A stretch of DNA of 64,000 nt from Thermoflexales bacterium (lineage in GTDB: Bacteria; Chloroflexota; Anaerolineae; Fen-1058). The notes under the pieces are model-generated. The model saw nothing but the letters and a program-made list of their open reading frames with translations. It made no database searches and was not told the DNA's origin. The translations under genes were made by a program, and so were the position numbers. The first letter of the stretch is position 1. Each line of letters opens with the position of its first letter. The DNA is taken from the NCBI GenBank assembly GCA_034434835.1, contig DAOTXX010000019.1, positions 21,361 to 85,360 on the forward strand, read 5' to 3'. Shown piece by piece: positions 1 to 53,887 of the stretch.

Positions 1-980
1 CCGGCCAGGCTGGCCTGGTGGTGAATCACAACGTAGCGACGGTGGTCGCTCTTGCGCCAGCTTCACGGGTCGTCACAGCGGGCGATAGCGTGAACTATAC
101 CGTCGTCGCCACAGACACCTCGGGCAACTCGTGGGACGCGACCGGTACAGCAGCATACACCATCACGCCGGGGGCAGGCGGAACGTGGGCAGGGAACGTC
201 TATACGAGCCAAATCGCAGGAACGTGGACAGTTACGGCGACCGTAGGTGGCAAGTCGGGTAACGCCACCCTCTACGTGAACGCCGGTGCGCCGTTCGCCT
301 TGACGCTGCAGGCCAACCCCGCCACGCTGATGGCGAATGGAACCAGCACATCCACGATCACCGCACTGGTCGCCGACCAGTTCGGTAACCCGGTCGCCGA
401 TGGCACCAGCGTGAGCTTTGGCGCAACGCTCGGCACAGTCAGCACGCCGCACGTGACGACGAACGGCCGCGCTGTGGCGATCTTTACCGCGGGGACGCAG
501 GCTGGCACCGCCACCGTCACTGCCACAGCCAATGGTCGCAGCGGCAACGTCCAACTCATGCTGACGCAGGGATTGGTGGACCTCTCGCCTTCGGTCAAGC
601 GAGCCAGCGCGGCGACCTTTGCCTCGGGCGAGTTGTTGACCTATACCATCATCCTGACCAACTCGGGCAATTCGGTGGCAGCCAACCTCGTGGTGACCGA
701 TCCTATCCCGGTCGGAGCGACCTTTGTGCCCGGCTCGCTCAGCGGCAATGGCGCGACCTACAATACCAGCCAGAATCGCATCGAGTGGAATGGGACATTA
801 CAGCCTGGGGAATCGGCACAATTCGTTTACGCGATCACCGTCAGAACCCATCAAGTCATCACGATCACCAACAGGGCTTTTGTGAGTCTGGGCGGCGTGG
901 TGGATCGGATCCTCACCGTGGAGACGCAGGCGAGGCCCCGGTACATCTATTTGCCCGTCGTCATGCGCAACGTTCCATAG
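1..980 (+). CDS. 5'-partial secreted/cell-surface protein with Ig-like (Big_2-type) repeats and a DUF11 conserved-repeat domain; C-terminus ends YIYLPVVMRNVP
   Basis: The ORF is open to the window start with no upstream stop in frame. Repeated T/G-rich beta-strand modules are present (GTWTVTATVGGKSGNATLYVNAG; TATVTATANGRSGNVQLML). A DUF11-like segment reads LTYTIILTNSGNSVAANLVVTDPIPVGATFVPGS. A terminator hairpin follows. Confidence 0.6.
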   Translation, partial: GQAGLVVNHNVATVVALAPASRVVTAGDSVNYTVVATDTSGNSWDATGTAAYTITPGAGGTWAGNVYTSQIAGTWTVTATVGGKSGNATLYVNAGAPFALTLQANPATLMANGTSTSTITALVADQFGNPVADGTSVSFGATLGTVSTPHVTTNGRAVAIFTAGTQAGTATVTATANGRSGNVQLMLTQGLVDLSPSVKRASAATFASGELLTYTIILTNSGNSVAANLVVTDPIPVGATFVPGSLSGNGATYNTSQNRIEWNGTLQPGESAQFVYAITVRTHQVITITNRAFVSLGGVVDRILTVETQARPRYIYLPVVMRNVP

Positions 981-1452: not shown

Positions 1453-2229
1453 ATGCGAGTTCTGGTGACGAACGACGATGGCGTGGACGCGCCGGGACTG
1501 CTCGCGCTCAAGCGCGCGCTGGACGCGGTGGGCGAGACTCTGGTCGTCGCGCCGGAACACAACTGGTCAGCGGCCGGGCACCGCAAGACGATGCACAAGC
1601 CGCTGCGCCTGGCTCAGGCGCGGCTGGAGGATGGCTCGCTTGCCTATGCGGCCAGCGGCAGTCCATCGGATTGCGTCGCGCTGGTCATGCTGGGCGCGCT
1701 CCAGGTCAAGCCCGATCTGGTCGTCTCTGGCATCAACCCCAATCCCAACCTCGGCCAGGACATGACCTATTCCGGCACGGTGACGGCGGCGATGGAAGGG
1801 ACGATCAGCGGGGTCCCCTCGTTTGCTGTTTCGACCGATACGCGCGAAGCCAAAAAACGCGGCGTTGCAGAGCCTTTCACGCTCGCCGCCGATTTTGCTG
1901 CCGTCGTCGCGCGCAAGATCATGGCGGAGGGATTGCCGCCCGGCGTGCTGCTCAACGTGAATGTGCCCGGCGTGGCGAAGGAGAACCTCCGAGGCGTGCG
2001 CGTCACCCGCATGTGCCGCCGCATCTATCGTGATGAATTGGTCGAGCGCGCCGACCCGCGCGGCAGGCCGTACTATTGGATCGGCGGCGAAGAGCCGACG
2101 GCCGAGCCGGACGCAGGCACCGACTTTTGGGCGCTCGAAAACGGTTTTATCTCGGTCACACCGCTGCACCTCGATCTGACTGCCTATCCACAGATGGAAC
2201 TTGTAGCAGGCTGGGCGCTCCGACTGTAA
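1453..2229 (+). CDS. surE: 5'/3'-nucleotidase SurE
   Basis: The N-terminus MRVLVTNDDGVDAPGLLAL is the canonical SurE DDG motif. The size is 258 aa. Confidence 0.9.
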   Translation: MRVLVTNDDGVDAPGLLALKRALDAVGETLVVAPEHNWSAAGHRKTMHKPLRLAQARLEDGSLAYAASGSPSDCVALVMLGALQVKPDLVVSGINPNPNLGQDMTYSGTVTAAMEGTISGVPSFAVSTDTREAKKRGVAEPFTLAADFAAVVARKIMAEGLPPGVLLNVNVPGVAKENLRGVRVTRMCRRIYRDELVERADPRGRPYYWIGGEEPTAEPDAGTDFWALENGFISVTPLHLDLTAYPQMELVAGWALRL

Positions 2230-2251
2230 ATACCCAAGACCCAATACCTTT

Positions 2252-3460
2252 ATGCAACAGATGAATTTATTCTCCGCACCCGAACCCATGACCGTCAGCG
2301 ACCTCACGCGGTACATCCGCGAGATGTTTGAGGTGGACTATCGCCTGCAAGACGTGTGGGTCGAAGGCGAGGTCTCTGGCCTCACCCGCCATACCTCGGG
2401 CCACATTTACTTTACGCTCAAAGACGCCTCGGCGCAGATCGCGTGCGTGATGTGGAAGAATGTGGCGTGGACGTTTGGCGATCTGCTTTCGCATGGCGGT
2501 CAGATCGTAGCGCACGGCAAGGTGAGCGTCTATGAGACGCGCGGGCAGTACCAACTCTATGTGGACCGCGTCCAGCCCAAAGGCCTGGGCGACCTGCACG
2601 CGCAGTTCGAGCTGCTCAAGGCCAAACTCCAGGCCGAGGGGCTTTTTGCGCCAGAGCGCAAGCGGCCCCTGCCAGAATTCCCCCATCGCATCGGACTGGT
2701 CACCTCGCCCACTGGCGCGGTCATCCGCGACATTTGCAACATCCTCTCGCGGCGCTGGCCGCTGGTTGAGGTGTTGCTGGCGCCGACCCAAGTCCAGGGC
2801 GACGACGCACCGCCACAAATCGTCGCCGCGCTCGATACGCTGTATCGCCGGGATGATCTCGATCTGATCATCGTCGCGCGTGGAGGTGGCTCGCTAGAAG
2901 ATTTGTGGGCGTTCAACGACGAGCGTGTGGCGCGCCAGATCGCCCAATCGCCGGTACCGGTGGTGAGCGGCGTGGGCCACGAGGTAGATTTCACCATCGC
3001 CGATTTCGTCGCCGACCTGCGCGCCCCCACGCCTTCCGCCGCAGCCGAACTGGTCACCCCCGACCGTATGGAACTGAAGGCCCAAGTGGACGTGCTGCGC
3101 TCCAAATTGGTCTCGGCTATCCAGGACGATCTGCGCGACCGGCGCGCGGCCGTTCAATCCCAGGCGCGCGCCTTGGCTCATCTTTCGCCCCAGCAGCAGC
3201 TTGCCAACTTGCGCCAGCGTGCGGATGACCTGATCTCCCAAGCCACCTCGTCGGTCGCGCATCTGTTGCAACTGCGCCGCGCCCGCCTGACCGGCGCTCT
3301 GGCGCGGCTGGACGCGCTCAATCCACTGGCCGTCTTGCAGCGCGGCTATGCCGTCGTCCGGCGTGAAGGCCAACTGGTGCACAGCGTCTCCCAGGTGTCG
3401 CCCGGCGATCGGCTGTCCGTTCACGTCTCGGACGGAGATTTTGAGGCGACGGTGTCGTGA
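2252..3460 (+). CDS. xseA: Exodeoxyribonuclease VII large subunit
   Basis: An OB-fold N-terminus is followed by the XseA catalytic region (402 aa). The xseB gene follows immediately. Confidence 0.88.
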   Translation: MQQMNLFSAPEPMTVSDLTRYIREMFEVDYRLQDVWVEGEVSGLTRHTSGHIYFTLKDASAQIACVMWKNVAWTFGDLLSHGGQIVAHGKVSVYETRGQYQLYVDRVQPKGLGDLHAQFELLKAKLQAEGLFAPERKRPLPEFPHRIGLVTSPTGAVIRDICNILSRRWPLVEVLLAPTQVQGDDAPPQIVAALDTLYRRDDLDLIIVARGGGSLEDLWAFNDERVARQIAQSPVPVVSGVGHEVDFTIADFVADLRAPTPSAAAELVTPDRMELKAQVDVLRSKLVSAIQDDLRDRRAAVQSQARALAHLSPQQQLANLRQRADDLISQATSSVAHLLQLRRARLTGALARLDALNPLAVLQRGYAVVRREGQLVHSVSQVSPGDRLSVHVSDGDFEATVS

Positions 3461-3499
3461 GGCGCGACGGAACACGCAGTACGGAATACGGAGCAGGAC

Positions 3500-3739
3500 A
3501 TGAAGAAACAATCCAAGCCTGAAGAGATGACCTTTGAATCCGCCTTTGCTCAGCTCGAGGAAATCGTCGGCAAGCTGGAGGCGGGCGACCTGGCCCTCGA
3601 CGAGGCACTGGCGCTCTACGAGCAAGGACAAAAACTGGCTGCCTTTTGCAGTGCCCAGTTAGATCAGGCCGAGCTAAAGGTACAACAGCTTTCGGCCTCT
3701 GGCGCGGTCGAACCGTTTGATGTGAGCGAGGCGCATTGA
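3500..3739 (+). CDS. xseB: Exodeoxyribonuclease VII small subunit
   Basis: This is a 79-aa helical protein containing FEEALAQLEEIVGKLE-like XseB signature, located downstream of xseA. Confidence 0.85.
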   Translation: MKKQSKPEEMTFESAFAQLEEIVGKLEAGDLALDEALALYEQGQKLAAFCSAQLDQAELKVQQLSASGAVEPFDVSEAH

Positions 3740-4197
3740 TGACGGCGTTGGCCGGGCTGCTTTCGAACCAGGTGCTCATCGCCGCGCTGACGTGGTGGGC
3801 CGTCGCGCAACTGCTCAAGGTCCCCATTCACTACGCCGTCCACCGCAGGATAGACCTGCGGTTGTGGGTCAGCGCGGGCGGGATGCCCAGCTCGCACTCG
3901 TCGCTGGTCTGCGCGCTGGCGACGGGTGTCGCGCTCACCGATGGCCTGACCTCGCCCACCTTTGCGATCTGCGTGGCATTGGCAATGATCGTCATGTACG
4001 ACGCAGCCGGCGTCCGCCAGGCCGCCGGCAAGCAAGCTGCCATCCTCAATCAGATCATTGATGAGCTGTTCCAGGGACATCCGATCAGCGAGCAGCGGCT
4101 CAAGGAACTGCTCGGCCACACGCGCTTCCAGGTGATCGTCGGCGCGCTGATGGGTATTTTGGGCACGCTGCTCATGTGGGAATTGTGGCGACTGTAG
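3736..4197 (+). CDS. Divergent PAP2 (DUF212) family membrane protein
   Basis: The GGMPSSHS motif and hydrophobic helices are present. A 4-bp overlap with xseB suggests translational coupling. Confidence 0.75.
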   Translation: MMTALAGLLSNQVLIAALTWWAVAQLLKVPIHYAVHRRIDLRLWVSAGGMPSSHSSLVCALATGVALTDGLTSPTFAICVALAMIVMYDAAGVRQAAGKQAAILNQIIDELFQGHPISEQRLKELLGHTRFQVIVGALMGILGTLLMWELWRL

Positions 4198-4320
4198 AGC
4201 GCGCTTTCTGCAACAAGCCTGGGCAGCGAAACCGGTTGACTGATCATCAAGAGGCAAGGTATAATGGCTTGCATCAGGCTGAGGAGAACTGGGTATCACG
4301 AGTATCGGTTTGGAGGAGAG

Positions 4321-9747: not shown

Positions 9748-11046
9748 TCACGGAAAGACTCGCCGTGTCCACTGAAGTGGGTCAACATTCAGGCTACGGA
9801 TGCGCAAGTCCCAGTGCAAATGCGAACCGGTCGAAAGCCCCGTCGAACCGATCTTGGCAACCAACTGCCCCTGCTTGACACGCTGGCCGACCCACACGTT
9901 GATCTCGGATAAATGGTAAAAGCCAGAAAAGACACCCCAACCATGATCGATGATGACGGCGTTGCCACGCACGGTCAGGGGCTGCGCCAGGGCCACGACG
10001 CCATCGGCCGGGGCATAGACCGGCGCACCGCCGATCCCCCAAAAGTCCACGCCTTCGTGGTAACTGTTGAACGAGCCGCCCTCGTACGCGCGGCGCACCC
10101 CGAACCAAGAAGTGATATGCCCGGTCGCAGGCAGGGTGAACAGTCCGCTCCAGTAGCGCTGAGGCGTGAAAACGCCAAAGATGCTGGCGAGCTTGTTGCG
10201 TTCCGCCGTGACCAATTCCGGCGCAAGCAATTGCTGCCGGTCCTCGGGCAAGTCAATCCTCTCGTACGCAAACTTGCCTGCGACGACCTGGATGCTGGTC
10301 GTCATCGAGGTCCGACGTCCCCCTGAATCCACCGCGGTGAGTGTCATGGGGAACAGGCCCGTCTTTTGCATCGCGTGGATGCCGATCAGCGCGTAATAGG
10401 CATTGCCCTCTTTGGCAAAGGGGATCGCCCAGTCGAGGAACGTGCCGCTGAGCGAAACGCTACGGCTGGTCAGCACGGTGACCGCGATGGTGTTGCCCTG
10501 GACGACCGGCAGCGGCGCAATGTCCACGCTCACAAACGGATCAGGCAATGAGGGCAGCGCAGGCACGGTCTCGGAATGTTGCGAACCGGAGGGGATCAGC
10601 AGACGCTGCCCCCAGTAAATCATGGTCGGCGTCTCGAGCTTGTTATACGCCGCCAAGGTCCACACGGTGGTATTGAAGCGCAACGCGATGCGGTACAGGG
10701 TTTCGCCCGGCTGCACAATGTATACTGTGTCGCCGGCTGGAGCGGACGCGGATGCAGGCGTCGCCGTCGGCGAGGGGAGGGCCGACCCGCCGGGCAAAGC
10801 CGGCACAACCAGCGTCTGCCCGACATAGATCAACGCCGGGTTGACAATGCCGTTGAGCTGGGCCAACGTCGCCGCAGTGGTGTGATAGCGCGTGGCGATG
10901 CTAAAGAGCGTGTCCCCGACGCGGACTATATACGTCGTGGTGGTCGCGGGAGGGGTGGCCCGCTGGGCCAAGACCTGAGGGGCCGGCCATGCCAGGCCCA
11001 GGAATGTCAGGGCCAAGAGCACGGCGCAGAGGGTGCGAAGGGACAT
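9748..11046 (-). CDS. Secreted LysM-domain peptidase M23 (peptidoglycan endopeptidase)
   Basis: A signal peptide is followed by two LysM repeats (YIVRVGDTLFSIATRY...; YIVQPGETLYRIALRF...). The C-terminal M23 motifs are HEGVDF and GSTGLSTGSHLHWDLRI. Confidence 0.88.
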   Translation of the reverse strand: MSLRTLCAVLLALTFLGLAWPAPQVLAQRATPPATTTTYIVRVGDTLFSIATRYHTTAATLAQLNGIVNPALIYVGQTLVVPALPGGSALPSPTATPASASAPAGDTVYIVQPGETLYRIALRFNTTVWTLAAYNKLETPTMIYWGQRLLIPSGSQHSETVPALPSLPDPFVSVDIAPLPVVQGNTIAVTVLTSRSVSLSGTFLDWAIPFAKEGNAYYALIGIHAMQKTGLFPMTLTAVDSGGRRTSMTTSIQVVAGKFAYERIDLPEDRQQLLAPELVTAERNKLASIFGVFTPQRYWSGLFTLPATGHITSWFGVRRAYEGGSFNSYHEGVDFWGIGGAPVYAPADGVVALAQPLTVRGNAVIIDHGWGVFSGFYHLSEINVWVGQRVKQGQLVAKIGSTGLSTGSHLHWDLRIRSLNVDPLQWTRRVFP

Positions 11047-19600: not shown

Positions 19601-21382
19601 CTATTCCTTGTGGAGCGGCACGGCCAGCGTGATCAGCGTGCCCTTGCCCGGGTGCGAGTCGAGGGTCAGGATGCCGTTGATTAACTCGGCGCGCTCGCGC
19701 ATGTTGACCATGCCCAGGCTGCCGCGCGATTCGTAGGCCGAGGTGACGCCTTGAACGTCAAAGCCTTCGCCGTCATCTTGAACTTCGGCAATGACGGCAT
19801 CGTGCTCGGCCCTCAAGCGCACCCAGATGTTGCTCGCCCGAGCGTGCTTGCGCGCGTTACCGACCGCCTCTTCGACGATGTAAAAGATAACGCCCTGCAT
19901 GTTCAGGTCAATCAGGTTTTCGACGGGCTGCGCTTGCAGGTGGATCGCCAGGCTGGGATCGGTCTCCTTAGACTTTTGGATGGACTGCTCCAGCGCAGCG
20001 GTCAGGCCTTGCGTTTCCAGCACCAGCGGGCGCAGCGTAAAGAGCATGTGGCGGATCTCTTTGGTCGTCCGCCGCGCCAACTCTTCGATCTTGGCCAGCT
20101 CGCCGTCCAGTTTGGTCGGTTCGTGCTCGGCCAGCTTGCGCGCATAGTTGAGTCGCATCGCAATCGCGGCGATACTCTGCGTGGGGCCGTCGTGCAAATC
20201 CCGCGCCAGCTTTTTGCGCGCGTTCTCTTCAATCTCGACGATACGATTCTTTTCCTGCTGCAGGCTCTGGTAAAGCTGCGCGTTTTGCATGGCAATCGTC
20301 GCCTGACTGCACACCGCCGTCAGCATCTCGATGTGCTCACCCGTGAACACGTCCGCATCGCGGCTGCCCACGACCACCAACCCGTACGTTTCAAAGCCCG
20401 CCCGCAGCGGAACGCATAGCACCTGCTTGCAATCCTGCAGCGCCACGAACTGGCTCAACTCCGGGTCTTCGAGGGGATTGTCCGCCAGGATGGGATCGGC
20501 GGATTTGAGCGCCTGGGCGACCAAGCCGGACTTGCCGGGGATCGTCTTGAGCTGATCGCGCGTCGTCAGGTGACGCGAGGCCGCTACATAGTAGCCACCT
20601 TTGTCGTACAGAAACACAACGCTGACCATCCGCCGCGCCGCTGGCCCCAGGTCCTTGAAGCCCATCGAGGCAATGTCGAGGATCGCATCCAGGATGCGCT
20701 CGTAGCTGAGCGTCGCGCCGAGCGTGCTGGCCATCTCGAACACGGCGCGCACCTGTTCGCGGGCCGTGCGCAGCCGGCGCAGCTCGGCCTCCTCCTCGGC
20801 CAGGCTCAACCGGGTGAGAATGTCTCGCATCCGATCGCCCACGCTGCCGGTCAACACGGCCGCAATGAGCAAGATGAGCGAGTTCAGGAGGACTGGAAAG
20901 AGATGCTGCATCCCCAGGTCGGGCAGCACCGGCCACACGACGATCACCGAATAGACGAGCGCAATGCTGCCCGCCGTGATCAGCCCGGCAATCCAATCAA
21001 ACCGCAGCACCGCGGTAAAGACTGGAAACAGACAGAAGAAAAACAGCGGGCTGCCTGCGCCGCCGGATGCAAAGACCAGTCCGACTGACAGCAAGCTGTC
21101 CAGCACCAATGTCAAGATCGGCATGAGGCGAGCCGACACGTGAAAGGCCAGCAGCAACATGCTCAGCAGGTTGTAGGCCGCACCGACCAGCAGCAAGCCC
21201 AAGGTCAGGGTCATGCTGGAATCGCTCCACGCAGTGCGATTGGGGCTAGCGAGCAAGACAAGACCTACACTGACCAGCAATAACCACCGCAGGTTGCCGA
21301 CCAGCCAATCTAACTGTGTCAGAGGTCTGGCTTTGGACTTTAAGCGTGGCATGTAACTTTTCACATCTGGGGAATTCACCAA
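19601..21382 (-). CDS. Membrane sensor histidine kinase (multi-TM N-terminus, GAF domain, HisKA_3 + HATPase_c; NarL/LuxR-partner type)
   Basis: The H-box ARDLHDGPTQSIAAIAM is typical of HisKA_3. A GAF-like central domain is present, and the C-terminal ATPase motifs include GEGFDVQG. The protein is 593 aa. Confidence 0.85.
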   Translation of the reverse strand: MVNSPDVKSYMPRLKSKARPLTQLDWLVGNLRWLLLVSVGLVLLASPNRTAWSDSSMTLTLGLLLVGAAYNLLSMLLLAFHVSARLMPILTLVLDSLLSVGLVFASGGAGSPLFFFCLFPVFTAVLRFDWIAGLITAGSIALVYSVIVVWPVLPDLGMQHLFPVLLNSLILLIAAVLTGSVGDRMRDILTRLSLAEEEAELRRLRTAREQVRAVFEMASTLGATLSYERILDAILDIASMGFKDLGPAARRMVSVVFLYDKGGYYVAASRHLTTRDQLKTIPGKSGLVAQALKSADPILADNPLEDPELSQFVALQDCKQVLCVPLRAGFETYGLVVVGSRDADVFTGEHIEMLTAVCSQATIAMQNAQLYQSLQQEKNRIVEIEENARKKLARDLHDGPTQSIAAIAMRLNYARKLAEHEPTKLDGELAKIEELARRTTKEIRHMLFTLRPLVLETQGLTAALEQSIQKSKETDPSLAIHLQAQPVENLIDLNMQGVIFYIVEEAVGNARKHARASNIWVRLRAEHDAVIAEVQDDGEGFDVQGVTSAYESRGSLGMVNMRERAELINGILTLDSHPGKGTLITLAVPLHKE

Positions 21383-21551: not shown

Positions 21552-23240
21552 TCACTTGAAAATAACAGGCAGATAAACCGCGCTCCCACCAGCAAAGACA
21601 AACCCATACGCCGGGGCATCCAACATAGGCGCGGTGACGGTGAACGTGTGTGTGCCTGTGATCGCGGGTGTAAAGGCCCACGTCCACACCAGCGGCACGT
21701 CCCCGCTCCTTCCTTCGTAGATCGGCGCGAGCAGTTGGCCTTCCGGGTCCGTCAGCGTCAGCGCGATGCCTGTGTACGGATAATACGCCAACGCGCGAAG
21801 AGTCACTGGCGCGTCCAACGGCGGAGCGGGCGGATGCGAGTCAACCCTCGCCTGTGAGACAACATTCACATCGGTCGTCAGCGGAGCTTGGATCAAACTC
21901 GCTGTAAAAGTGACGAGATGCGTCCCGGTCACCAGCGACGCAAAACGCCATGTATGTGTGTACGCCCCTGTGATGCCTTCGTCTATTGTAGCGACATTGC
22001 CCGCGGGGCTTGTGACCGTCAATCGCTGCGAGGCATAGGGATAAAATGCGCCGACGCGCACGGTCACGGTCTGGCTGAGCAGCGCCGTCGCAGGCTGGGC
22101 AGTCAAGTGCGCGGTGGCGAGAGCGTGCAGTGTAGACGTGACTGGCAGGGGCAAATCGCTTGCCGAAAAAGCCAGCGTGTACGTGCCCGGCACGGTCGGC
22201 GTGAACTGCCACGTCCATGTGTACGGCCCATCGCCCGAACTCAGCCCACCCTCGGGCGTGACCAGAGTCGAGTTGGGATCGGCGATTGTCAGCGCGACAT
22301 CCGCATGGTCAACCTCCGACCGAACCCGAACGCTTGTGAGCTGGCCCAGCTCCGGTTGAGCCGGTTGAAGCCAGAACTCGGCGGGCGGGCCAATGACGAC
22401 GAGGCTGGCATCGTCCACGTACACGTCGTTGTTGGATCGCGCAAAATCCCACTCTGGCCGCGAGTGCGTCCAGACAGTGATCGTGCTGGACAGCGCCCGG
22501 GCCTGGACGCCGAAATACGTCCACTGATCGAACGCGGGGGCCTCAGGCGACCAGACGATGTGGGTGCTGGTTGGGACCGTCCCACCGGTCGGATCAATGC
22601 CGATGCGGAGGTGCATATCGCTCGGCTGATCGGAGCGGCGTCCATAGTCACACTCATCAAAGTTGAAGCACATCCAGGTCTGCACCCAGGCGGTGAACTC
22701 GACCAGCGAGCCGGGAACGATGCCGGGGACTTGCTGGTAAAATCCGGCTTCGTGCATCCGCCCATAGGAAAAATATTTGGCCGCGGCCTCACCCGTATGA
22801 ACGCGATAGGGGTATTGTGGATAGAGGATCGCCACAAACTCGGGCCTGGCCCACATGCAGCCATAGTCTTTGCGGCAGACGCCCTTTTCGATGCAGTTCG
22901 AGGGGCACGGAATATAGCAATCTGGTCTCCACGGCCGGCACGGGGGAGGGTCGAAATACCAGGCCCACCAGCCATGCGCCACATTTACTTCTCCAGCCCC
23001 TTGCGGCACATAAGGCTGTTCAAAGCTGGGATTGACGAGCAAATTGCCCGGCACGGCAGCCGTTGGCTGCGGCGTGGGCGTGCGAGCGGCCAGGATGCCC
23101 AGCGGGGCAGTCGCTTGCGGTGTGCGGCGCGGCGCCAGAGTCGAGACCGCCCACCGGCTGAGGATCAGCATGACGGCGACCACGAGCACTAACAAAATAA
23201 CCCATGACGCTTTGCGGATGTCGGTGGGGTGCATGTCCAA
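21552..23240 (-). CDS. Secreted/signal-anchored protein with tandem Ig-like repeat modules; C-terminus ends GGSAVYLPVIFK
   Basis: An N-terminal TM helix is followed by repeated modules (PGTYTLAFSASDLPLP; TGTHLVTFTASLIQAPLT; TGTHTFTVTAPMLDAP). The protein is 562 aa. Confidence 0.6.
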   Translation of the reverse strand: MDMHPTDIRKASWVILLVLVVAVMLILSRWAVSTLAPRRTPQATAPLGILAARTPTPQPTAAVPGNLLVNPSFEQPYVPQGAGEVNVAHGWWAWYFDPPPCRPWRPDCYIPCPSNCIEKGVCRKDYGCMWARPEFVAILYPQYPYRVHTGEAAAKYFSYGRMHEAGFYQQVPGIVPGSLVEFTAWVQTWMCFNFDECDYGRRSDQPSDMHLRIGIDPTGGTVPTSTHIVWSPEAPAFDQWTYFGVQARALSSTITVWTHSRPEWDFARSNNDVYVDDASLVVIGPPAEFWLQPAQPELGQLTSVRVRSEVDHADVALTIADPNSTLVTPEGGLSSGDGPYTWTWQFTPTVPGTYTLAFSASDLPLPVTSTLHALATAHLTAQPATALLSQTVTVRVGAFYPYASQRLTVTSPAGNVATIDEGITGAYTHTWRFASLVTGTHLVTFTASLIQAPLTTDVNVVSQARVDSHPPAPPLDAPVTLRALAYYPYTGIALTLTDPEGQLLAPIYEGRSGDVPLVWTWAFTPAITGTHTFTVTAPMLDAPAYGFVFAGGSAVYLPVIFK

Positions 23241-40315: not shown

Positions 40316-43300
40316 ATGAGACGCGCATTCAGTCTCGCCATCGTCGCAATGTTCATTGCAGGCCTAGTGATCTCGGCCTGTGGGCCGGGAGCCACCCCTG
40401 GCAAGACTTTGCAAGGTGACAACACAGTGAAGATAAAACTGGCAGAGCCGGTGCGCTTTAACGAGCCGGTTGCGGTCACTATTACGGTGCAGGTAGAAAA
40501 GGAATTTCCTGAATTCGAGATATACCTACTCACACACGACTCTGATGCCATCATAGAAGGCGAAAGAAAATGGACAATCCATGCTTACGCGCACCAACCC
40601 GTCTCGGTGACCAGCAGCGTCAGGTTCACAAGGGAAGGGGACTTTGAAGTGATGGCCCAAACGCACGATCCCACCTTAGGGGGGTGGGTACTGGCGGGGC
40701 ATCAATACGTTCGCATCACCCGTGCAGGCGGGACGGTGAATCCGCCGCCAGATAGGTTGCCTGGCACACCGGGCGGGCTGATCAGGGTTACGCCTTTGTC
40801 ATCTATACCAACACCACTTGCTCCTCCCACGCCGCCCGATAAACCAACACCCAGTCCACCCTCGACCCCACAAGTCATGGTCGTCAATGCCAACCCGGCT
40901 CTTAACCTTCCCATCCCGGATAATGGCGCGTGGGTGACTTGTACCATTCCTATTACTGCTGCCCTACCTGGGGCTACGGTTATCGGCGTGAGCGTCAGGT
41001 TTGACATCACCCACCCACGCGCCCAAGACCTGGTTATGGAACTCGTTGGCCCCGATAAGACGACCGTGTATCGTGTGTGGGATCGCAAGACGCCCACTCG
41101 CGACGATTTTGAGTGGAGCATACGCAAAACGCCGCTCCCAGAAACAACGCCAGGTCCACTGATACCAAGCGCCAGCCAACTTGCCGTCTTTAACGGGCAA
41201 CCTGTCAACGGCAACTGGACACTGCGCGTTCGGGATGAAGCTCCGGGCGAAGCTGGAACCTGGTTAAACGCTTCCCTGGTAGTAAACTATCTGCGCCCTA
41301 CATCAGGCCAGGTTGTTCCCCCTCATCTGTTAGCTGGTAAGAGCCTGATGGGCGCTCAAGCCGCTGCCCAGGGCGACTGGCAGATCATCACCACTGAGGA
41401 CTTTGAGGGCGAGTGGCCTGTATTCTCGCCAGGCTGGTATGTGCGCGATCTGAACTGGGACGGCTACGAGCGTTATTGGGACGATGATGACTATCTGGCG
41501 CACAGTGGCGCCTGGGCAGCTTGGCCTGCCAGAGGCGGCGCTGATGGCCTGGACCCACAGTATTTTTACTACCCCAACAACATGGACACGAGGATGATTT
41601 ACGGCCCTTTTGATCTGAGTGACGCCGTCATGGCCGACACGGATTTTTATTTGTGGCGGGAAATAGAGGCTTACGATTACCTGGTGTTTGAGGTCTCGCA
41701 TGACGGTGCCACTTTTGAACCAAAGGTCTACTGGTCCGGTTCCTCTGGTTGGGAATTCCAAGATGTGTATTACAACAACTATGTGGGTGATAACACGGTG
41801 TGGATAGCTTGGCGTTTTTACAGCAACTCAAGCGGCTTTGACGATGGGCCGTTCGTGGATGATATTCGCATCTGGAAAAAGACGGCCGGTGATGTGACAG
41901 CCAGCGGTTATTTCTACTACTATGACCGCGACGACAATCTCGTGCCGGCCAAGTTCACCCGTGTTCGCCTCTATGATGCCGCCGTGGGGGGCGGCGGCTA
42001 CGAACTAGGCGCGACGACGACAGACGCTAGCGGCCGCTGGACGATTGGCCCAATCCTCAATCAGGACGAACCGGGTCAATTCACCCTCGATCTGTATGCT
42101 GTTGTTGAATTAGATGTGAATGACAGCTTATCGTCACGCCGGAGAGTGACCGACTTTGGAGATCAAACCTACCGCTGGTATACTCAGACTTTCTATGATG
42201 TGCCAGACGGAACGGTGGATTTTGGGGGATTAGCGATTTCCAATGGTGACGTTCAAGAGGCAGCGATGTGGATTTTCCAGGATATGCGTCGAGGTTGGGA
42301 GCACACTCGACACAACCCCGACACCGATCCCGGTTCATCCACTGCTCGATGGGAGAGAAACAAAGATTCATTAGCGCCATGCGCAAACGAGTGCTTTTGG
42401 CCTTTTCCTCCTGTGAACGGAATGTTCATACCCGACGTACGCAAATCGTCCGCTGATATCGTGGTTCACGAACTTGGACATCAGTATATGTACAATGCTA
42501 GCGGGCTGTGGGTAGACCTCTCCTGCCTCGGTCCTCACCAATTGTTTGAAAGAAGGGGCCAGTTGTGCGCCTGGGCTGAAGGGTGGGCTGATTTCCTTTC
42601 ATTGGCGGTGAACGTTGACCCATGCTACGACTGGGGCATGGGCCCTTGCGGCGCGAGAGGTGGAGCCTTTGAAAACCTTGAAATTCCTACTTGGCCAGTT
42701 CCACCCGATCAACGCCCGACAGGTGATGCCGTTGAAGGCCGTGTGGCGGGTGCATTGTACGATCTCTTTGATAGCGCCGATGATGGATATGACCAGACGA
42801 ATTTTGGCTTTACACCTATATGGAACATCGTGCATACTGCGCCAGCCGAATATAGCCTTGCCGACTTTTGGAACAGGTGGAAAGCCAACGGGAACCCCAA
42901 ACATCGCGCCGTGCAAGCCATCTATCAGAACACTATTGACTACGACACAGCGCCGATCATTGCCAACCTGCCGGACTGTATCGTGCTTCAGAACTTGACC
43001 TGGAATGATGCAATTGACCTCTGGCAGTATTCTTTCGACCCAGAAAGCTTTGACTGGGAATTGACCTGGCAGATCGTCAATACGACAGATCCGCGATGCG
43101 GCGCAGGTGTTGACACTTTGGGCAACATAGACCTTGCGCCCCAACCCGGTTGGTTGGGGTCGTGTGATGTGACCGTTCGCGTCTGCGACGGCATCAAGAC
43201 CGGCGACGACACGTTTACAGTGAATGTAGTGCTGGTGAGAGGGAGAGCCTATTTGCCCCTCATCCTGAAGAATGGCGGCGCGCAAGCCCAAAGCACCCAA

Positions 43301-43432
43301 CCTGGCCGCACCTCGTTCATCTCGCCGCTGGCGACGCTGCAAGCCCAACCATCGCCATTCAGGTCGCCATTGCCTACGCCTACACAGTCCAGTTCGTTTG
43401 TTTCACCGTTGCCCACGCCAGCGAGCCCATAA
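40316..43432 (+). CDS. Secreted lipoprotein: large zinc metalloprotease (HExxH) with proprotein-convertase P-domain and Pro/Ser/Thr-rich C-terminal tail
   Basis: The lipobox is LVISAC. The P-domain reads CTIPITAALPGATVIGVSVRFDITHPRAQDLVMELVGPD...NGNWTLRVRDEAPGEAGTW. HELGHQYMYN is the HExxH motif. The C-terminus carries AYLPLILKNG followed by an SPLPTP repeat tail. Confidence 0.75.
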   Translation: MRRAFSLAIVAMFIAGLVISACGPGATPGKTLQGDNTVKIKLAEPVRFNEPVAVTITVQVEKEFPEFEIYLLTHDSDAIIEGERKWTIHAYAHQPVSVTSSVRFTREGDFEVMAQTHDPTLGGWVLAGHQYVRITRAGGTVNPPPDRLPGTPGGLIRVTPLSSIPTPLAPPTPPDKPTPSPPSTPQVMVVNANPALNLPIPDNGAWVTCTIPITAALPGATVIGVSVRFDITHPRAQDLVMELVGPDKTTVYRVWDRKTPTRDDFEWSIRKTPLPETTPGPLIPSASQLAVFNGQPVNGNWTLRVRDEAPGEAGTWLNASLVVNYLRPTSGQVVPPHLLAGKSLMGAQAAAQGDWQIITTEDFEGEWPVFSPGWYVRDLNWDGYERYWDDDDYLAHSGAWAAWPARGGADGLDPQYFYYPNNMDTRMIYGPFDLSDAVMADTDFYLWREIEAYDYLVFEVSHDGATFEPKVYWSGSSGWEFQDVYYNNYVGDNTVWIAWRFYSNSSGFDDGPFVDDIRIWKKTAGDVTASGYFYYYDRDDNLVPAKFTRVRLYDAAVGGGGYELGATTTDASGRWTIGPILNQDEPGQFTLDLYAVVELDVNDSLSSRRRVTDFGDQTYRWYTQTFYDVPDGTVDFGGLAISNGDVQEAAMWIFQDMRRGWEHTRHNPDTDPGSSTARWERNKDSLAPCANECFWPFPPVNGMFIPDVRKSSADIVVHELGHQYMYNASGLWVDLSCLGPHQLFERRGQLCAWAEGWADFLSLAVNVDPCYDWGMGPCGARGGAFENLEIPTWPVPPDQRPTGDAVEGRVAGALYDLFDSADDGYDQTNFGFTPIWNIVHTAPAEYSLADFWNRWKANGNPKHRAVQAIYQNTIDYDTAPIIANLPDCIVLQNLTWNDAIDLWQYSFDPESFDWELTWQIVNTTDPRCGAGVDTLGNIDLAPQPGWLGSCDVTVRVCDGIKTGDDTFTVNVVLVRGRAYLPLILKNGGAQAQSTQPGRTSFISPLATLQAQPSPFRSPLPTPTQSSSFVSPLPTPASP

Positions 43433-43528: not shown

Positions 43529-45487
<1,959 letters not shown>

Positions 45488-45489
45488 TC

Positions 45490-45530
45490 GTGTTTTACGC
45501 ATCACGCATCACGTGAAGCGTGATGCGTAA
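45490..45530. repeat. Heptamer-periodic hairpin (ACGCATC x2 / CGTGATGCGTAA) after fhs
   Basis: The sequence reads TTTACGCATCACGCATCACGtgaagCGTGATGCGTAAAG, giving a perfect 12-bp stem. Confidence 0.55.
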
Positions 45531-45548
45531 AGAGCTTGGAGGGAACGA

Positions 45549-45884
45549 ATGGACAAACTAGTTTTGAACGTGCCCACGCTTTGGGCGGATCATCACGTCC
45601 TGCGCGTGCGGGAGGCCTTGGGCCGCTTGAACGGGATCGAAGATGTGTATGCCAGCTCAGCCTGGAAGCAGGTGCTGGTGACTTTTGACGCGGCCAAGAC
45701 GAATCGGGCGGCCATCGAGCAGGCGCTGGCTGAGGCCGGTTACCCCGTGGATCAAGGGGAAACGCCGGTGCTGGTTCAACCCGGCTTGAAAGGCCGCGAT
45801 CCCAAATGGGAAATGTTGGGTGCAAGGGTGACTCAGACGGATCGTGTTGATATCGAAATGTCCGGCGAGTTTAGGAAATATTAG
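45549..45884 (+). CDS. HMA-fold-like small protein with HH in place of CxxC (candidate metallochaperone)
   Basis: It is 111 aa with a beta-alpha-beta-beta-alpha-beta pattern: MDKLVLNVPTLWADHHVLRVREALGRLNGIEDV...AAIEQALAEAGYPV. It sits between fhs and cooS. Confidence 0.45.
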   Translation: MDKLVLNVPTLWADHHVLRVREALGRLNGIEDVYASSAWKQVLVTFDAAKTNRAAIEQALAEAGYPVDQGETPVLVQPGLKGRDPKWEMLGARVTQTDRVDIEMSGEFRKY

Positions 45885-45907
45885 CGATAGGATGGAGGTT
45901 TGAGAAA

Positions 45908-47902
45908 ATGGCAAAAAAGATACGAACACCGCAGGAGGCCAGCGCTGATGCGGCGGCCATGGCGCTTCTGGACCGAGCGTTGAGATTAGAGGTCGAGACG
46001 TGTTTCGTGCGCGCCGACGAGATCGCGCCCTGCCCCATCGGATCCGATGGCCTCTGCTGCCGCAACTGCGCGATGGGGCCTTGCCGTCTGGTGGGGAACG
46101 TCAAACGCGGCGTGTGCGGAGCGACGATAGATACGGTGGTAGCTCGCAACTTTGCCCGGGCCGTGGCGGTCGGCGCGGCCGCGCACTCGGACCATGGGCG
46201 GGGGCTGGCCTATACACTGTTGGAGGCCGCCGAGGGGCACGCGCCAGATTACCAGATTCGTGACCCCTTCAAGCTGCGCGAGATGGCCGGTTACCTGGGC
46301 GTCCAGTCCGACGGGCGGCCGCTGAACGAGGTCGCGAAAGATGTCGCGCTGGCAGCCCTGGGCGAGTTCGGCCGGCTTCAGGGAGAATTGATCTATCTGA
46401 AGCGCGCGCCGGACAGGCGGCAGCAAATCTGGCGCGACCTGGGGATCGCCCCGCGTGCCATAGATCGCGAAGTGGTCGAACTCTTGCATCGCACCCACAT
46501 TGGCAACGACCAGGACGCCGAGCACATCCTGGATCAGGCCATGCGCTGCGCGTTGGCCGATGGCTGGGGCGGCTCGATGCTCGCCACCGACCTGACCGAT
46601 ATCCTCTTTGGCACGCCTTCTCCGATCCAATCGGAAGCGAATCTGGGTGTGCTGCGGCCGGACATGGTCAACATCATTGTCCACGGCCACGAGCCGACAC
46701 TTTCCGAGATGATTGTCGCGGCGTCGCTGGACCCCGAGCTGGTCGCCTATGCCAGGAGCAAAGGGGCACAGGGCATCCAACTGGCGGGCATCTGTTGCAC
46801 CGCCAACGAGACGCTCTTGCGAGAAGGCATCCCGCTGGCGGGGAACTTTTTGATGCAAGAGCTGGCCGTCCTCACCGGCGCGGTCGAGGCGATGGTCGTG
46901 GACATCCAGTGCATCTTTCAGGGCCTGGTCTCTGTGGCGGAGCGCTTCCACACCGAGATCATCACCACCTCGCCCAAAGCCAAGATCACGGGCGCCACGC
47001 ACATCGAGTTCGAAGAGCGCCGGGCGCTCGAGATCGCCAAAGAGATCGTCCGCCGGGCGATTGACCGCTTCCCGCAGCGCGGCGAGACTATGATCCCCGA
47101 CGTCCACAGCGCGCTGGTGCCGGGCTTTTCACACGAGTACATTGATTATGCGCTGGGCGGCATCCATCGAGGGTCTTTCCGCCCGCTCAATGATGCCATC
47201 ATGCAGGGGCGCATCCGCGGCGTGGTCGCCAACATCGGCTGTAACAATGCCCGCATCCCTCACGACTCGCTGCACCGCTACGTGGTCCAAGAGTTCCTCA
47301 AGAACGATGTCCTGGTCGTCGAGACCGGTTGTGGCGCGATCGCCAGCGCCAAGCAGGGCTACATGACGCCCGAGGCGGCCTGGGAAGCCGCCGGGCCGGG
47401 CCTGCGCGAAGTCTGCGAGGCGGTGGGCATGCCGCCGGTGCTGCACATGGGCTCTTGCGTGGACAACTCGCGCATCCTGAGCGTCCTTTCCCAGATGGCA
47501 ACCGAGACCGGCCTGGGCGACGACATCGCCGACATTCCGGCCGTCGGCATGGCGCCCGAGTGGATGAGTGAAAAGGCCCTGTCCATTGCGACTTATTGTG
47601 TGGCTTCCGGGGCGTATGTGATCATGGGCGGCCGCAACCCCGTAGAAGGCAGCGAGACCGTCACGCGCCTGATCAGCGAGGGATGGGAAAAGAAAGTGGG
47701 CGGCAAGCTCGAGTTCATCGAAGACGGCGCCGAGATCGTCCGCCGGGCGCTGGCCCACATTGACGCCAAGCGGGCCGCGCTTCATCTGGCCGAGTACGAT
47801 CCCTCCAGGTGGGGCAAGAGCGGCGACTGGCGTTTGCCCACGCTGCTGGAACTCCCACTGGAAGAACGAGTCGAAGCGGTTTATGGAGCACCGGTGAGGT
47901 AG
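45908..47902 (+). CDS. cooS: Carbon monoxide dehydrogenase catalytic subunit (Ni,Fe-CODH; AcsA/CooS)
   Basis: The B/D-cluster motif is CPIGSDGLCCRNCAMGPCRL. The protein is 664 aa and lies immediately upstream of acsB. Confidence 0.9.
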   Translation: MAKKIRTPQEASADAAAMALLDRALRLEVETCFVRADEIAPCPIGSDGLCCRNCAMGPCRLVGNVKRGVCGATIDTVVARNFARAVAVGAAAHSDHGRGLAYTLLEAAEGHAPDYQIRDPFKLREMAGYLGVQSDGRPLNEVAKDVALAALGEFGRLQGELIYLKRAPDRRQQIWRDLGIAPRAIDREVVELLHRTHIGNDQDAEHILDQAMRCALADGWGGSMLATDLTDILFGTPSPIQSEANLGVLRPDMVNIIVHGHEPTLSEMIVAASLDPELVAYARSKGAQGIQLAGICCTANETLLREGIPLAGNFLMQELAVLTGAVEAMVVDIQCIFQGLVSVAERFHTEIITTSPKAKITGATHIEFEERRALEIAKEIVRRAIDRFPQRGETMIPDVHSALVPGFSHEYIDYALGGIHRGSFRPLNDAIMQGRIRGVVANIGCNNARIPHDSLHRYVVQEFLKNDVLVVETGCGAIASAKQGYMTPEAAWEAAGPGLREVCEAVGMPPVLHMGSCVDNSRILSVLSQMATETGLGDDIADIPAVGMAPEWMSEKALSIATYCVASGAYVIMGGRNPVEGSETVTRLISEGWEKKVGGKLEFIEDGAEIVRRALAHIDAKRAALHLAEYDPSRWGKSGDWRLPTLLELPLEERVEAVYGAPVR

Positions 47903-47914
47903 AAGGGGGAAGAA

Positions 47915-50197: not shown

Positions 50198-50209
50198 AGG
50201 CGAAAGGTT

Positions 50210-50256
50210 GAAGGATGAAGGATGAAGGCGGGAAGGTTTTTCGTCCTTCATCCTTC
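50210..50256. repeat. Heptamer-periodic hairpin (GAAGGAT x2...ATCCTTC) acting as probable terminator after acsB
   Basis: The sequence reads GAAGGATGAAGGATGAAGGCGGGAAGGTTTTTCGTCCTTCATCCTTC. Confidence 0.55.
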
Positions 50257-50364
50257 CTCAGTATGACCCCGACGTCGCGCAGACCGATCGGGGTTTCTGT
50301 CTGTCATCGCTTGCCAGTTTAGGGTATAATAATGTGACGTGGTAGGTGATATGTAAACAGTTAG

Positions 50365-51471
50365 ATGGAGCGTGTAATGACTGGGCAACGATCTCGATCC
50401 AAAACCCTGATTAGCTGTATCACCGTGATTGTCGCCATTGCACTGGGGCATGGATTATCTACAAGCGACGCTCGAACACTTCCACGAACAACATTTCTTT
50501 CTCCACAACAACAATTGACGCCACGAGCTTGGTTACCCATTGTCATGAACAATTTCCCGCCTGTTCCGACTATATCTCGTTACCTGGCTAACACAAATAC
50601 TGTGAGTTATTCCTTTCTCTATAATCTTGGCTACAGCAGAGGACAGGCAACCTCGGCTGGCCAAAATGTCGTTATCATCCTTGATTTTGGCTATCCTGAC
50701 TATGATCCAGCGACGGGGCAGTATGGCGCAACGCTTCTTGTTGATAGAACTTTTCACAGCACTAGTGACATTTTGTATGCTGTTGAAGGATTTCTTTCTG
50801 GCTTCTATGCAGGCTCTCCCGCTGGTGCGCATCTCACACTTGCCATTGGAGTAAACAACAATGGTGCTGGCGTCACGGGGCCACATGGCGCGGCATGGGC
50901 GCAAACTGTGAATGGTCTGAATAGCTGGATCAGTATTCCACCAAGCTACGCGGACAAACTTGCTGTATGGGGAGCTATAGACGCCGAACTTCCGTGGAAT
51001 AACGCACAGGTCACACGCGCGTGGGTAGACGGTTATCAATCTACTTACGCGTTTGGTTCGTTCTACCTAAACTTTGGTTCGTGCGATGGTTGTCCAGTTG
51101 CAATGTGTCCTTCTCCAGATCATTCTGTGGGCTATGGTTGGACGTGCGATGACATCTGGTATGTGTCTTACGGCGCGACACCAGCGTACCCGATGCCCGA
51201 GATTTACTTGACAAGCGGCATAAACGCTGCTCAATGGTATGGAATGAGCTTGTATGCTTATAGCAATCACGGCGCCCGCATGAACTTTCGCGGTTCGGTA
51301 ACGCAATGGAATGCCTGCCAAGAACAAACTGATCCCAATGCATGCATCTATCCTGTCAGGACTGATAATATGCCCGCACAAGGCTACTTGCAGTTGTACA
51401 ACGCGATCAATGCCGACTGGCGAACAGCGGCGACAATGCCTTGGTCAACTGACATGAGTTGGCAAAAATAG
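50365..51471 (+). CDS. Low-GC insertion gene 1: signal-anchored Cys-rich secreted protein of unknown function (contains LPIVMNN motif after the TM helix)
   Basis: The TM helix is LISCITVIVAIALG. The protein is 368 aa and Gly/Tyr/Trp/Asn-rich, with Cys pairs (GSCDGCPVAMCPS; NACQEQTDPNAC). The A/T-rich codon usage is unlike its neighbours. Confidence 0.6.
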   Translation: MERVMTGQRSRSKTLISCITVIVAIALGHGLSTSDARTLPRTTFLSPQQQLTPRAWLPIVMNNFPPVPTISRYLANTNTVSYSFLYNLGYSRGQATSAGQNVVIILDFGYPDYDPATGQYGATLLVDRTFHSTSDILYAVEGFLSGFYAGSPAGAHLTLAIGVNNNGAGVTGPHGAAWAQTVNGLNSWISIPPSYADKLAVWGAIDAELPWNNAQVTRAWVDGYQSTYAFGSFYLNFGSCDGCPVAMCPSPDHSVGYGWTCDDIWYVSYGATPAYPMPEIYLTSGINAAQWYGMSLYAYSNHGARMNFRGSVTQWNACQEQTDPNACIYPVRTDNMPAQGYLQLYNAINADWRTAATMPWSTDMSWQK

Positions 51472-51489
51472 AAGGAAAGCGAGGTATCT

Positions 51490-52260: not shown

Positions 52261-52380
52261 TGTGCTCAATCAAAATTGACCGAGCCGATCCGGTCAACCA
52301 TTGTGCTGTCACTGCCAGAATAACACAATTGCCCGACGAATCGTTTGATTTCTCAAAGACACTAAAGGAGGTCATCCATC

Positions 52381-53331: not shown

Positions 53332-53337
53332 TCAAGG

Positions 53338-53565
53338 GTGACACACCCTATGGAGGATACTATGGCTGGGATGACCTGGGAGATGTTTTTCCAGATGATG
53401 ATGGCGGAAGAAAACGCCGCCCGTGACAAGTACAGGCTGGCGATGGAAAACGCCGAATCGCCAGAATTGAAAAAGGTCATGGAGCGACTGATGAACGAAG
53501 AAGCCGTTCACGCCGAAGTGCTGAGAGGCGAGTACGAACGGCTAACTAAAAAGATGAAGGTTTGA
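53338..53565 (+). CDS. Small helical ferritin-like/rubrerythrin-like hairpin protein (single ExxH)
   Basis: It is 75 aa. Two helices are predicted, carrying E..Y (MAEENAARDKY) and ExxH (EEAVHAE). Confidence 0.4.
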   Translation: MTHPMEDTMAGMTWEMFFQMMMAEENAARDKYRLAMENAESPELKKVMERLMNEEAVHAEVLRGEYERLTKKMKV

Positions 53566-53574
53566 GGAAAAGCA

Positions 53575-53811: not shown

Positions 53812-53872
53812 GTCAAACGTCGAGCGTCAAACGTCATGACGTCTTGCGTTTGACGTTTCACGTCTGATACCA
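53812..53872. repeat. Heptamer-periodic hairpin (GTCAAACGTC x2 / GACGTTTGACGTTTCACGTC) after nfu
   Basis: The sequence reads TGAGTCAAACGTCGAGCGTCAAACGTCATGACGTCTTGCGTTTGACGTTTCACGTCTGA. Confidence 0.55.
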
Positions 53873-53887
53873 CAAGGAGAACACACC

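Follow-up and report, generated by a model that had tools for sequence, protein, structure and literature searches.

The closest described counterpart of the element discussed here is found in NCBIfam, where two curated models, NF050076 ('sort_motif_YLP', 11 positions) and NF053834 ('ultrashort_CTERM', 10 positions), carry the same description, 'YLP-box putative sorting motif-containing protein'. The entry is a name only and comes without a mechanism, and Pfam holds no model for the motif. We encountered the same motif in a stretch of 64,000 nucleotides from a Thermoflexales bacterium (GenBank assembly GCA_034434835.1, contig DAOTXX010000019.1, positions 21,361 to 85,360), which in its full length is called the window in the following, and in which it occurs in four proteins, A to D. 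When proteins bearing the consensus were scanned against NCBIfam, the two models aligned to [IV]YLPLVLRN. The four sites are copies of an ultrashort tag of the Chloroflexota with the consensus [YHF]-x-[IVL]-[YFW]-L-P-[LVI]-[VI]-[LMF]-[RK]-(N)-x0-3, which usually lies right at the stop codon, and it is almost certain that they are the YLP-box. The motif is thus already catalogued, with the same tentative sorting interpretation by the NCBI curators, and its observation in the window is an independent rediscovery.

Among the better-known terminal signals, the LPXTG signal of sortase substrates is like the YLP-box in being short, in containing a proline and in lying close to the C-terminus of surface proteins that are exported via Sec and have highly varied cargo domains. 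However, the YLP-box comes without a transmembrane (TM) helix or a long basic tail, often has nothing past its basic residue, and is also found near N-termini. An LPXTG-type pentapeptide followed by a TM segment of approximately 20 residues and a basic tail is absent at the window boxes, and no sortase-signal model was matched in the NCBIfam scans. Likewise, the PEP-CTERM/exosortase, PGF-CTERM/archaeosortase and GlyGly-CTERM/rhombosortase systems resemble the YLP-box in that they use lineage-restricted C-terminal tags that are present in many copies per genome and often follow 'choice-of-anchor' domains, but these tags need a membrane-spanning helix and a basic cluster for an intramembrane enzyme, whereas the YLP-box has 3-5 hydrophobic residues after the proline. 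We found neither a TM helix after the window boxes nor a match to a PEP-CTERM-type model, and no exosortase, archaeosortase or rhombosortase among the window genes scanned. A preliminary description of the window, made from its letters alone, had stated that the motif lacks a subsequent TM helix with basic tail, and indeed none of A, B, C and D has that signature.

The features on which the argument rests are the following (window coordinates).

3 to 980, plus strand: protein A, partial coding sequence, its 5′ end cut by the window edge (translation)
945 to 977, plus strand: C-terminal YLP-box of A, I-Y-L-P-V-V-M-R-N-V-P, with YLPVVMR at 948-968 and the stop codon at 978-980 (translation)
21552 to 23234, minus strand: protein B, 560 amino acids (exact sequence present in the sequence collection as P0039)
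21555 to 21578, minus strand: C-terminal YLP-box of B, V-Y-L-P-V-I-F-K, followed at once by the stop codon, with zero trailing residues (translation)
40316 to 43432, plus strand: protein C, 1038 amino acids (sequence, Pfam and family comparison)
43247 to 43273, plus strand: YLP-box of C, A-Y-L-P-L-I-L-K-N (family comparison)
43274 to 43429, plus strand: Pro/Ser/Thr-rich tail of C after the box, approximately 52 residues (sequence)
50377 to 51471, plus strand: protein D, 364 amino acids from the methionine at 50377, in a frame open from 50365 (P0001 in the sequence collection)
50527 to 50553, plus strand: N-terminal YLP-box of D, A-W-L-P-I-V-M-N-N, residues 55-63 (alignment and AlphaFold2, AF2)
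948-968 (plus), 21575-21555 (minus), 43250-43270 (plus) and 50530-50550 (plus): matches to the YLP pattern (six-frame search)

The six-frame translation of the window, comprising approximately 128,000 translated residues, was searched with the pattern [YW]LP[VLI][VI][MLF][RKN]. This gave exactly four matches over the whole window, every one inside a real gene, and the shorter core LP[VLI][VI][MLF][RKN] returned the same four sites without a single match in a wrong frame. The amino-acid composition of the window leads one to expect 0.003 matches in genes and 0.02 over six frames. With four matches against 0.003 expected, and none in wrong frames, chance is excluded. The recurrence of the motif at or near the termini of four proteins, as first described, is therefore confirmed at all four sites, with translations that match the earlier text. 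One could still argue that there is no tag at all, i.e., that the sites recur by chance, represent the final β-strand of a domain common to these proteins, or reflect a conserved DNA element (a terminator or repeat, for example) that happens to be translated, given that the pattern was derived post hoc from the four sites and that hydrophobic strings are common at 60% GC. Apart from the numbers just given, an independent scan of genomes (see below) confirms the motif, and we consider this explanation to have a vanishingly small probability; evidence on its strand and DNA-element versions is given below.

Protein A is a surface protein with the Pfam domains Invasin_D3 (Big_1/Invasin_D3; 6e-18) and DUF11 (9e-15), and it terminates with RPRYIYLPVVMRNVP and the stop codon, which reads IYLPVVMRNVP at its end. 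Protein B is built from an N-terminal TM/signal anchor, a conserved Cys-rich domain and three Ig-like domains, and has the YLP-box as its final residues (GGSAVYLPVIFK and stop, i.e., AVYLPVIFK). Both proteins end within 0-3 residues of the box, while C continues as a polar tail rich in Pro, Ser and Thr. For comparison with the curated models, A to D were scanned as tail or motif peptides, using the NCBIfam cut-offs of 10 bits for NF053834 and 15 bits for NF050076. For the tail peptide of A, the score on NF053834 is 13.6 bits, which passes, and that on NF050076 is 13.4 bits, just below the cut-off; the tail of B passes NF053834 with 14.3 bits. The tails of A and B thus are the same motif as that of the NCBIfam entry, under the same 'putative sorting' naming.

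Orthologues of B retain the box down to 39% identity while its flanks diverge, and homologues of the conserved domain of B terminate in one of three ways, namely in a YLP-box, in a TM helix with an RRR-type tail, or in LysM. In the AF2 model of B, which was calculated from a family alignment, the last 10 residues are coil with a predicted local distance difference test score (pLDDT) of 60, as compared to 92-95 for the preceding Ig-like domains. Just downstream of B lies a multi-TM sensor kinase with GAF and HisKA_3 domains (19601-21382, minus strand). Homologous kinases are found near YLP-box genes in two other loci (L024, 3985-6486, plus strand; L053, 6750-7799, plus strand), which, with three loci only, may be a coincidence or may mean that one and the same orthologous neighbourhood has kept its gene order.

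Protein C begins with a lipoprotein-type signal (LVISAC), followed by a proprotein-convertase P domain (Pfam P_proprotein, 2.5e-8), a metalloprotease-like region with the sequence HELGH, an Ig-like domain, the YLP-box and the Pro/Ser/Thr-rich tail. The box is part of GRAYLPLILKNGG at 43250-43273 and reads AYLPLILKNGG. Most of 120 homologues of C, compared over the protease and Ig-like region, end in VVPV..R.[YF]LP[LI][IV][LM][KR] plus 0-3 residues, and a tail like that of C (35-55 residues, rich in Pro, Ser and Thr, after the box) is common to a subset of them (P0176-P0180, P0184, P0191 and P0250). Judged from this comparison, the box of C is orthologous to the typical boxes at the extreme C-terminus, with a low-complexity tail added, and we take it to be genuine because it corresponds to the boxes with which most family members end. 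Two homologues of C carry SLH in place of the box. Many proteins of this family (homologues P0177-P0294) furthermore contain a second YLP-like string, F[LF]PL[VL]VN, approximately 224 residues before the end, the counterpart of which in the window protein (stretch 41996-43279 of C) is FWPFPPVN, inside the protease region. We rejected this conserved 'FLPLVVN' as a second box, as it is part of the catalytic protease domain and a false positive of a loose pattern.

Protein D differs in that its box is N-terminal. It is a secreted, TIM-barrel-like protein (mean AF2 pLDDT 88; a fold search returned weak TIM-barrel/glycoside-hydrolase-like matches only) that begins with a signal/anchor helix at residues 2-32. 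The box is carried by PRAWLPIVMNNFPP at 50530-50550, with AWLPIVMNNFPP corresponding to residues 55-66, and it is located past the helix and a disordered spacer and before the folded domain, which begins at about residue 69. It had been said to follow the anchor directly; the motif is indeed there, but the gap amounts to approximately 24 residues, such that 'near' is the appropriate word. In the AF2 model the box is coil between the N-terminal helix and the TIM-barrel-like domain, with a pLDDT of roughly 50-80. The pattern [WYF][LFI]P[LVIF][VIA] is kept at the aligned position in approximately 22 of 26 homologues of D, down to 33% identity, and reads [WYF][LFI]P[LVIF][VIA]..[ND] in its longer form, even though the linker around it varies and three members have a long Pro/Thr linker inserted right after the box. 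The box of D is regarded as genuine because of this conservation across the family.

To see where the motif occurs beyond the window, we back-translated YLPLVLRN, which we expected to be its commonest form, to TAYCTNCCNCTNGTNCTNCGNAAY and scanned one genome per species from 185,579 species. The scan gave at least 120 stretches; the counts in the following are among the matches listed, and loci were taken as 8-kb pieces. By record title, 104 of 120 stretches are metagenome-assembled genomes (MAGs) of Chloroflexota (Anaerolineae/Anaerolineales, Thermoflexia/Thermoflexus/Thermoflexales, 'Chloroflexia', 'Chloroflexota'); the remainder comprise one unclassified bacterium and 15 stretches from other phyla. 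Not one of these 15 lies at the end of a long open reading frame (ORF); they are found in wrong-frame mini-ORFs or in the interior of proteins, for instance at the N-terminus of an FtsX-like permease. Source-named homologues of B, C and D are also almost all from Chloroflexi, Anaerolineae, Thermoflexales, Caldilinea or Herpetosiphonaceae. The motif is thus lineage-restricted. A single match in a scan of viral contigs was discarded as a chance hit in a 30-residue ORF of a contig with 37% GC.

The matches also reveal at which level the motif is maintained. In 121 YLPLVLRN matches, all four bases were found at each synonymous site, and this free variation means that selection acts on the peptide and not on a DNA element, which removes one of the explanations that would do without a tag. 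The extended consensus of these matches is [YHF]-x-[IVL]-Y-L-P-L-V-L-R-N-x. Single MAGs contain up to seven exact copies of YLPLVLRN, and up to four boxed proteins occur in one 8-kb locus.

With respect to position, 90 of the 108 in-frame matches in Chloroflexota lie 0-3 residues before the stop codon, 59 of them exactly one residue before it. Variants other than the seed, found in long ORFs of neighbouring genes at the same loci, show the same preference, with 18 of 24 within four residues of the stop. Approximately 14% of the Chloroflexota matches are internal, typically in the form YLPLVLRN[YWH]-(P/S)-P-P, where a Pro-rich linker leads to CARDB-like or other domains. The YLP-box is therefore mainly but not exclusively C-terminal. 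These internal copies are what one would expect of a site that is recognized or cut by a maturation protease at a propeptide or polyprotein boundary, releasing a downstream domain or trimming the C-terminus, and the location of the box between the anchor and the enzyme domain in the D family, as well as in front of a disposable Pro/Ser/Thr-rich tail in C, would fit with this as well. However, with approximately 85% of boxes there are 0-3 residues after the motif, and in many cases zero, so that there is nothing to remove; moreover, homologues exchange the box for anchoring modules and not for propeptides. We thus consider a maturation-protease site improbable.

The link to export is equally clear. 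When ORFs with complete 5′ ends are counted, 54 of 69 carriers possess a single hydrophobic segment at the N-terminus, as opposed to 73 of 339 non-carriers (odds ratio 13, p = 5e-19), and the signal peptides of the carriers resemble ordinary Sec signals. Within the window, B has its TM/signal anchor, C its lipobox signal and D its signal/anchor helix, while the 5′ end of A lies outside the window. The suggestions to look for a preference for termini and for an enrichment in signal-peptide proteins have thereby both led to positive answers in 121 independent loci from public genomes. That the box might be just as frequent in cytoplasmic proteins, which would speak against a tag, already appears improbable from the export numbers. 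The initial notion of a tag for sorting, processing or attachment that is confined to a lineage and differs from the known types of sortase and exosortase signals is supported by lineage (104 of 120 stretches from Chloroflexota, and matches from other phyla never at the end of a long ORF), by position, by the link to signal peptides and by the missing TM helix and basic tail.

Given that the carriers already have Sec signals and that their cargo domains are very diverse, the C-terminal tag might serve not for retention but for a second export step, by which the proteins would cross or leave an outer envelope layer, in the manner of the C-terminal domain of the type IX secretion system (T9SS) or of a type I secretion signal. 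This appears very unlikely to us, because modules that retain proteins (TM tail, LysM, SLH) replace the box in homologues, N-terminal and internal copies occur, and no secretion-system genes were seen nearby, neither among the window genes scanned nor in the 121 loci.

What, then, is the nature of the box itself? The domains upstream of it are mutually unrelated and comprise right-handed β-helix/choice-of-anchor Q, LVIVD/choice-of-anchor B, Ig-like and DUF11 domains as well as a protease. From this, and from the fact that AF2 places the box as coil outside of the domains in B and D, we conclude that it is not part of a fold, contrary to what the last strand of a shared domain would require; the box is predicted to be unstructured. 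Comparison of homologues shows that it can be exchanged for known anchoring modules. Its sharing of one slot with a TM tail, LysM and SLH, which is the argument behind the term 'choice-of-anchor', points to surface retention.

A sorting or retention function of some kind is likely. More specifically, we think it fairly probable that the YLP-box serves as a tag to retain Sec-exported proteins at the surface and is bound by a component of the envelope, most likely without being cleaved. In this model, the carrier would be exported via Sec through its ordinary N-terminal signal peptide, and one end of the protein would then expose the box, a loose hydrophobic stretch with the basic residue as a cap. 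An envelope component would bind the box, most likely non-covalently and without cleavage, and this binding would hold the protein at the cell surface. We infer all three of its elements, i.e., surface retention, docking instead of cleavage, and a dedicated partner.

The choice between docking and cleavage depends on how the boxes end. Many of them stop exactly at the basic residue (K, R or H), as in YLPVIFK of B and in others that end in FLPIILK or YLPIIMR. Since such boxes have no leaving group, cleavage after the box cannot be a requirement, and a transpeptidation would need a cut inside of it. For the same reason we dropped the idea of an asparaginyl-endopeptidase-like or Arg-specific cleavage after R-N. 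The main competing explanation is accordingly a covalent sorting signal, where a putative transpeptidase (an analogue of sortase, exosortase/archaeosortase or PorU) would cut inside the box, for example after L-P, and attach the protein to the wall, a lipid or a glycan. The 4-8 residues left over, LV(L)R(N)x, would be released, and the box would amount to a miniature of the usual arrangement of motif, hydrophobic stretch and basic tail. The miniature three-part layout of Y-L-P, three hydrophobic residues and a basic residue agrees with this, as do the tight confinement to the extreme C-terminus, the fact that the box stands in for a TM helix and RRR tail in homologues of B, and the model name 'ultrashort_CTERM'. 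On the other hand, there is no TM helix that could hold the substrate for an integral-membrane enzyme, the box is conserved at N-terminal and inter-domain positions, a classical sortase route is present separately (the LPVTG protein of locus L079, described below), and neither the scanned window genes nor the neighbours in 121 loci include a candidate enzyme. A covalent signal thus seems unlikely to us. The N-terminal and inter-domain copies, the missing leaving groups and the swaps with LysM, SLH and TM tails favour a non-covalent mode of attachment, though for non-covalent docking specifically our preference is tentative and falls somewhat short of an even chance.

Several observations weigh against the identification of the sites or against the docking model. 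The scan of full-length A, B, C and D against NCBIfam (E<=1) reported no YLP model, which is probably because the filters of HMMER drop such short matches, and the peptides around AYLPLILKN of C and AWLPIVMNN of D gave no match to the NCBIfam YLP models at E<=10. Literature searches with peptide strings, the term YLP-box and Chloroflexota sorting signals found no paper or experiment on the motif. A docking peptide that functions at any position would get by with a far looser placement than the preferred 0-3 trailing residues, and this preference could instead reflect recognition of the free C-terminus, or processing. Furthermore, seven hydrophobic residues alone supply little binding energy. 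Finally, clustering of 683 ORFs from 121 loci and the window yielded no candidate receptor or enzyme as a recurrent neighbour, and no sortase, exosortase or rhomboid-type enzyme was present in the Pfam annotation of 30 further window genes. What recurred among the 683 ORFs were repeat proteins of a tail-fibre-like type, ABC ATPases, a family of lipoproteins and a sensor kinase, and not one of these is a credible sorting enzyme.

Taking the retention model one step further, it is possible, if rather doubtful, that the YLP-box marks a surface-display route of monoderm Chloroflexota that works without a TM helix, where a peptide of 8-11 residues docks into a dedicated acceptor of the envelope, e.g. 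by strand insertion, from either terminus or from between domains. If this is true, the curated C-terminal definition covers only part of the system, and the N-terminal copies of the D family and the tailed copies of the C type would be functional members that the present models overlook. Sludge, sediments and hot springs harbour Anaerolineae and their relatives in abundance, and to our knowledge little is known about how these bacteria construct their cell surface. The tag carries adhesin-like repeat proteins, β-helix proteins and proteases, and it probably is a major surface-display route in these organisms. Identification of the partner would define a principle of sorting or anchoring that is free of a membrane helix.

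The genomic surroundings of the boxes are varied. The four box genes of the window are scattered among housekeeping genes, with SurE, exonuclease VII, an ABC transporter, the GAF/HisKA_3 kinase and Wood-Ljungdahl genes as neighbours. The other features of the window that are of relevance here are as follows.

9748 to 11046, minus strand: secreted protein of the architecture LysM-LysM-Peptidase_M23, which has a signal peptide but lacks a YLP-box (Pfam)
43529 to 45487: formate-tetrahydrofolate ligase, Wood-Ljungdahl cluster (43529-58322)
45908 to 47902: catalytic subunit of carbon monoxide dehydrogenase (CODH), same cluster
47915 to 50197: acetyl-CoA synthase (ACS), same cluster
51490 to 52260: lipoprotein ORF following D, lipobox LFLSAC, GC 0.48
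52381 to 53331: CdhD, same cluster
56382 to 58322: RACo, same cluster, which also holds a NifU-like gene

The first of these proteins shows, going by its predicted domains, that the genome also employs LysM for wall attachment. The Wood-Ljungdahl cluster indicates that the window probably derives from an acetogenic or CO-using Anaerolineae-like organism. D and the lipoprotein ORF after it (region 50198-52260) interrupt the CODH/ACS cluster between ACS and CdhD and look like an insertion. D had been described as low in GC, and with 0.49 for D and 0.48 for the next ORF as compared to 0.605 for the window, this is borne out. Longer homologues of D of approximately 540 amino acids (P0023, P0024, P0026, P0027 and P0032) have a C-terminal extension, which may correspond to the separate lipoprotein ORF after D.

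Two further observations were made at the other loci. In an Anaerolineae MAG (L079, CAYHAR010000067.1), an ORF of 307 amino acids with LPVTG, a TM helix and a basic tail lies on the same 8-kb piece as a YLP-box protein, from which it follows that the classical sortase route and the YLP tag co-exist in one genome. Overall, among the neighbouring non-seed genes, 18 have a terminal YLP-box versus one with a clear LPXTG signal. Thirteen loci harbor small secreted proteins of approximately 90-130 amino acids, in which a signal peptide is followed by GGGYDLTWNTIDGGG, then by GGFWGG, and then by the YLP-box (for instance at L089, 1288-1677, minus strand, after 1674-4319, minus strand; also at L019, L048, L100, L115, L013, L112, L028 and L076). 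In at least nine of the 13 loci, the gene of the small boxed protein directly follows that of a large repeat protein rich in Gly, the two often overlapping by 4 nt, and the C-terminus of this large protein resembles, by eye, a phage-tail-fibre intramolecular chaperone of the Peptidase_S74 type. The two appear to be a conserved two-gene unit.

The remaining comparisons concern systems in which the terminus of a protein serves for docking or anchoring. The cargo-loading peptides of encapsulins and the encapsulation peptides of microcompartments are ultrashort terminal docking peptides on flexible ends of diverse cargo proteins, usually at the C-terminus and sometimes at the N-terminus. These peptides act in the cytoplasm, however, whereas the carriers of the YLP-box have export signals, and no encapsulin or shell gene was found among the window genes scanned. 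The T9SS C-terminal domain is a β-sandwich of approximately 80-100 residues, in contrast to the 8-11 residues of the YLP-box, which are predicted to be coil, and Pfam and NCBIfam scans of the box proteins of the window gave no match to a T9SS model.

Donor-strand pili, such as the chaperone-usher pili and the Pam pilus of the candidate phyla radiation (CPR) (bioRxiv 10.64898/2026.03.03.709456), illustrate one way in which a tag that lacks a TM helix could dock in a monoderm envelope, namely by insertion of a terminal hydrophobic strand into an acceptor. Donor strands follow an alternating pattern, though, and the YLP-box with its central proline is without that alternation. The clustering of neighbourhoods from 121 loci showed no acceptor or chaperone genes of the donor-strand type. 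The small YLP-box proteins from the other loci reach a weak 24.9 bits on NF058579, the model of the pilus tip protein PamT, at model positions 8-76, in its N-terminal part; with a cut-off of 240, we rejected membership in CPR PamT.

LysM and SLH come closest with respect to the place that they occupy, as LysM in homologues of B and SLH in homologues of C stand at the C-terminal site where the box is otherwise found, and this sharing suggests that the box may play the same role in surface retention. They differ from it in being folded domains of 45-55 residues with known ligands, whereas the YLP-box is a linear peptide of 8-11 residues with no known ligand. As for the NCBIfam entry itself, the location implied by 'ultrashort_CTERM' is that of the boxes in A and B, but not of those in C, with its tail of about 52 residues, and D, where the box is N-terminal, and the curated models miss these two variant placements. 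Our analysis adds to the entry the conserved N-terminal position in the D family and the tolerance of appended tails or domains. It furthermore adds the homologues that have a TM tail, LysM or SLH in place of the box and thereby support a role in retention, and a structure prediction that supports a free tag.

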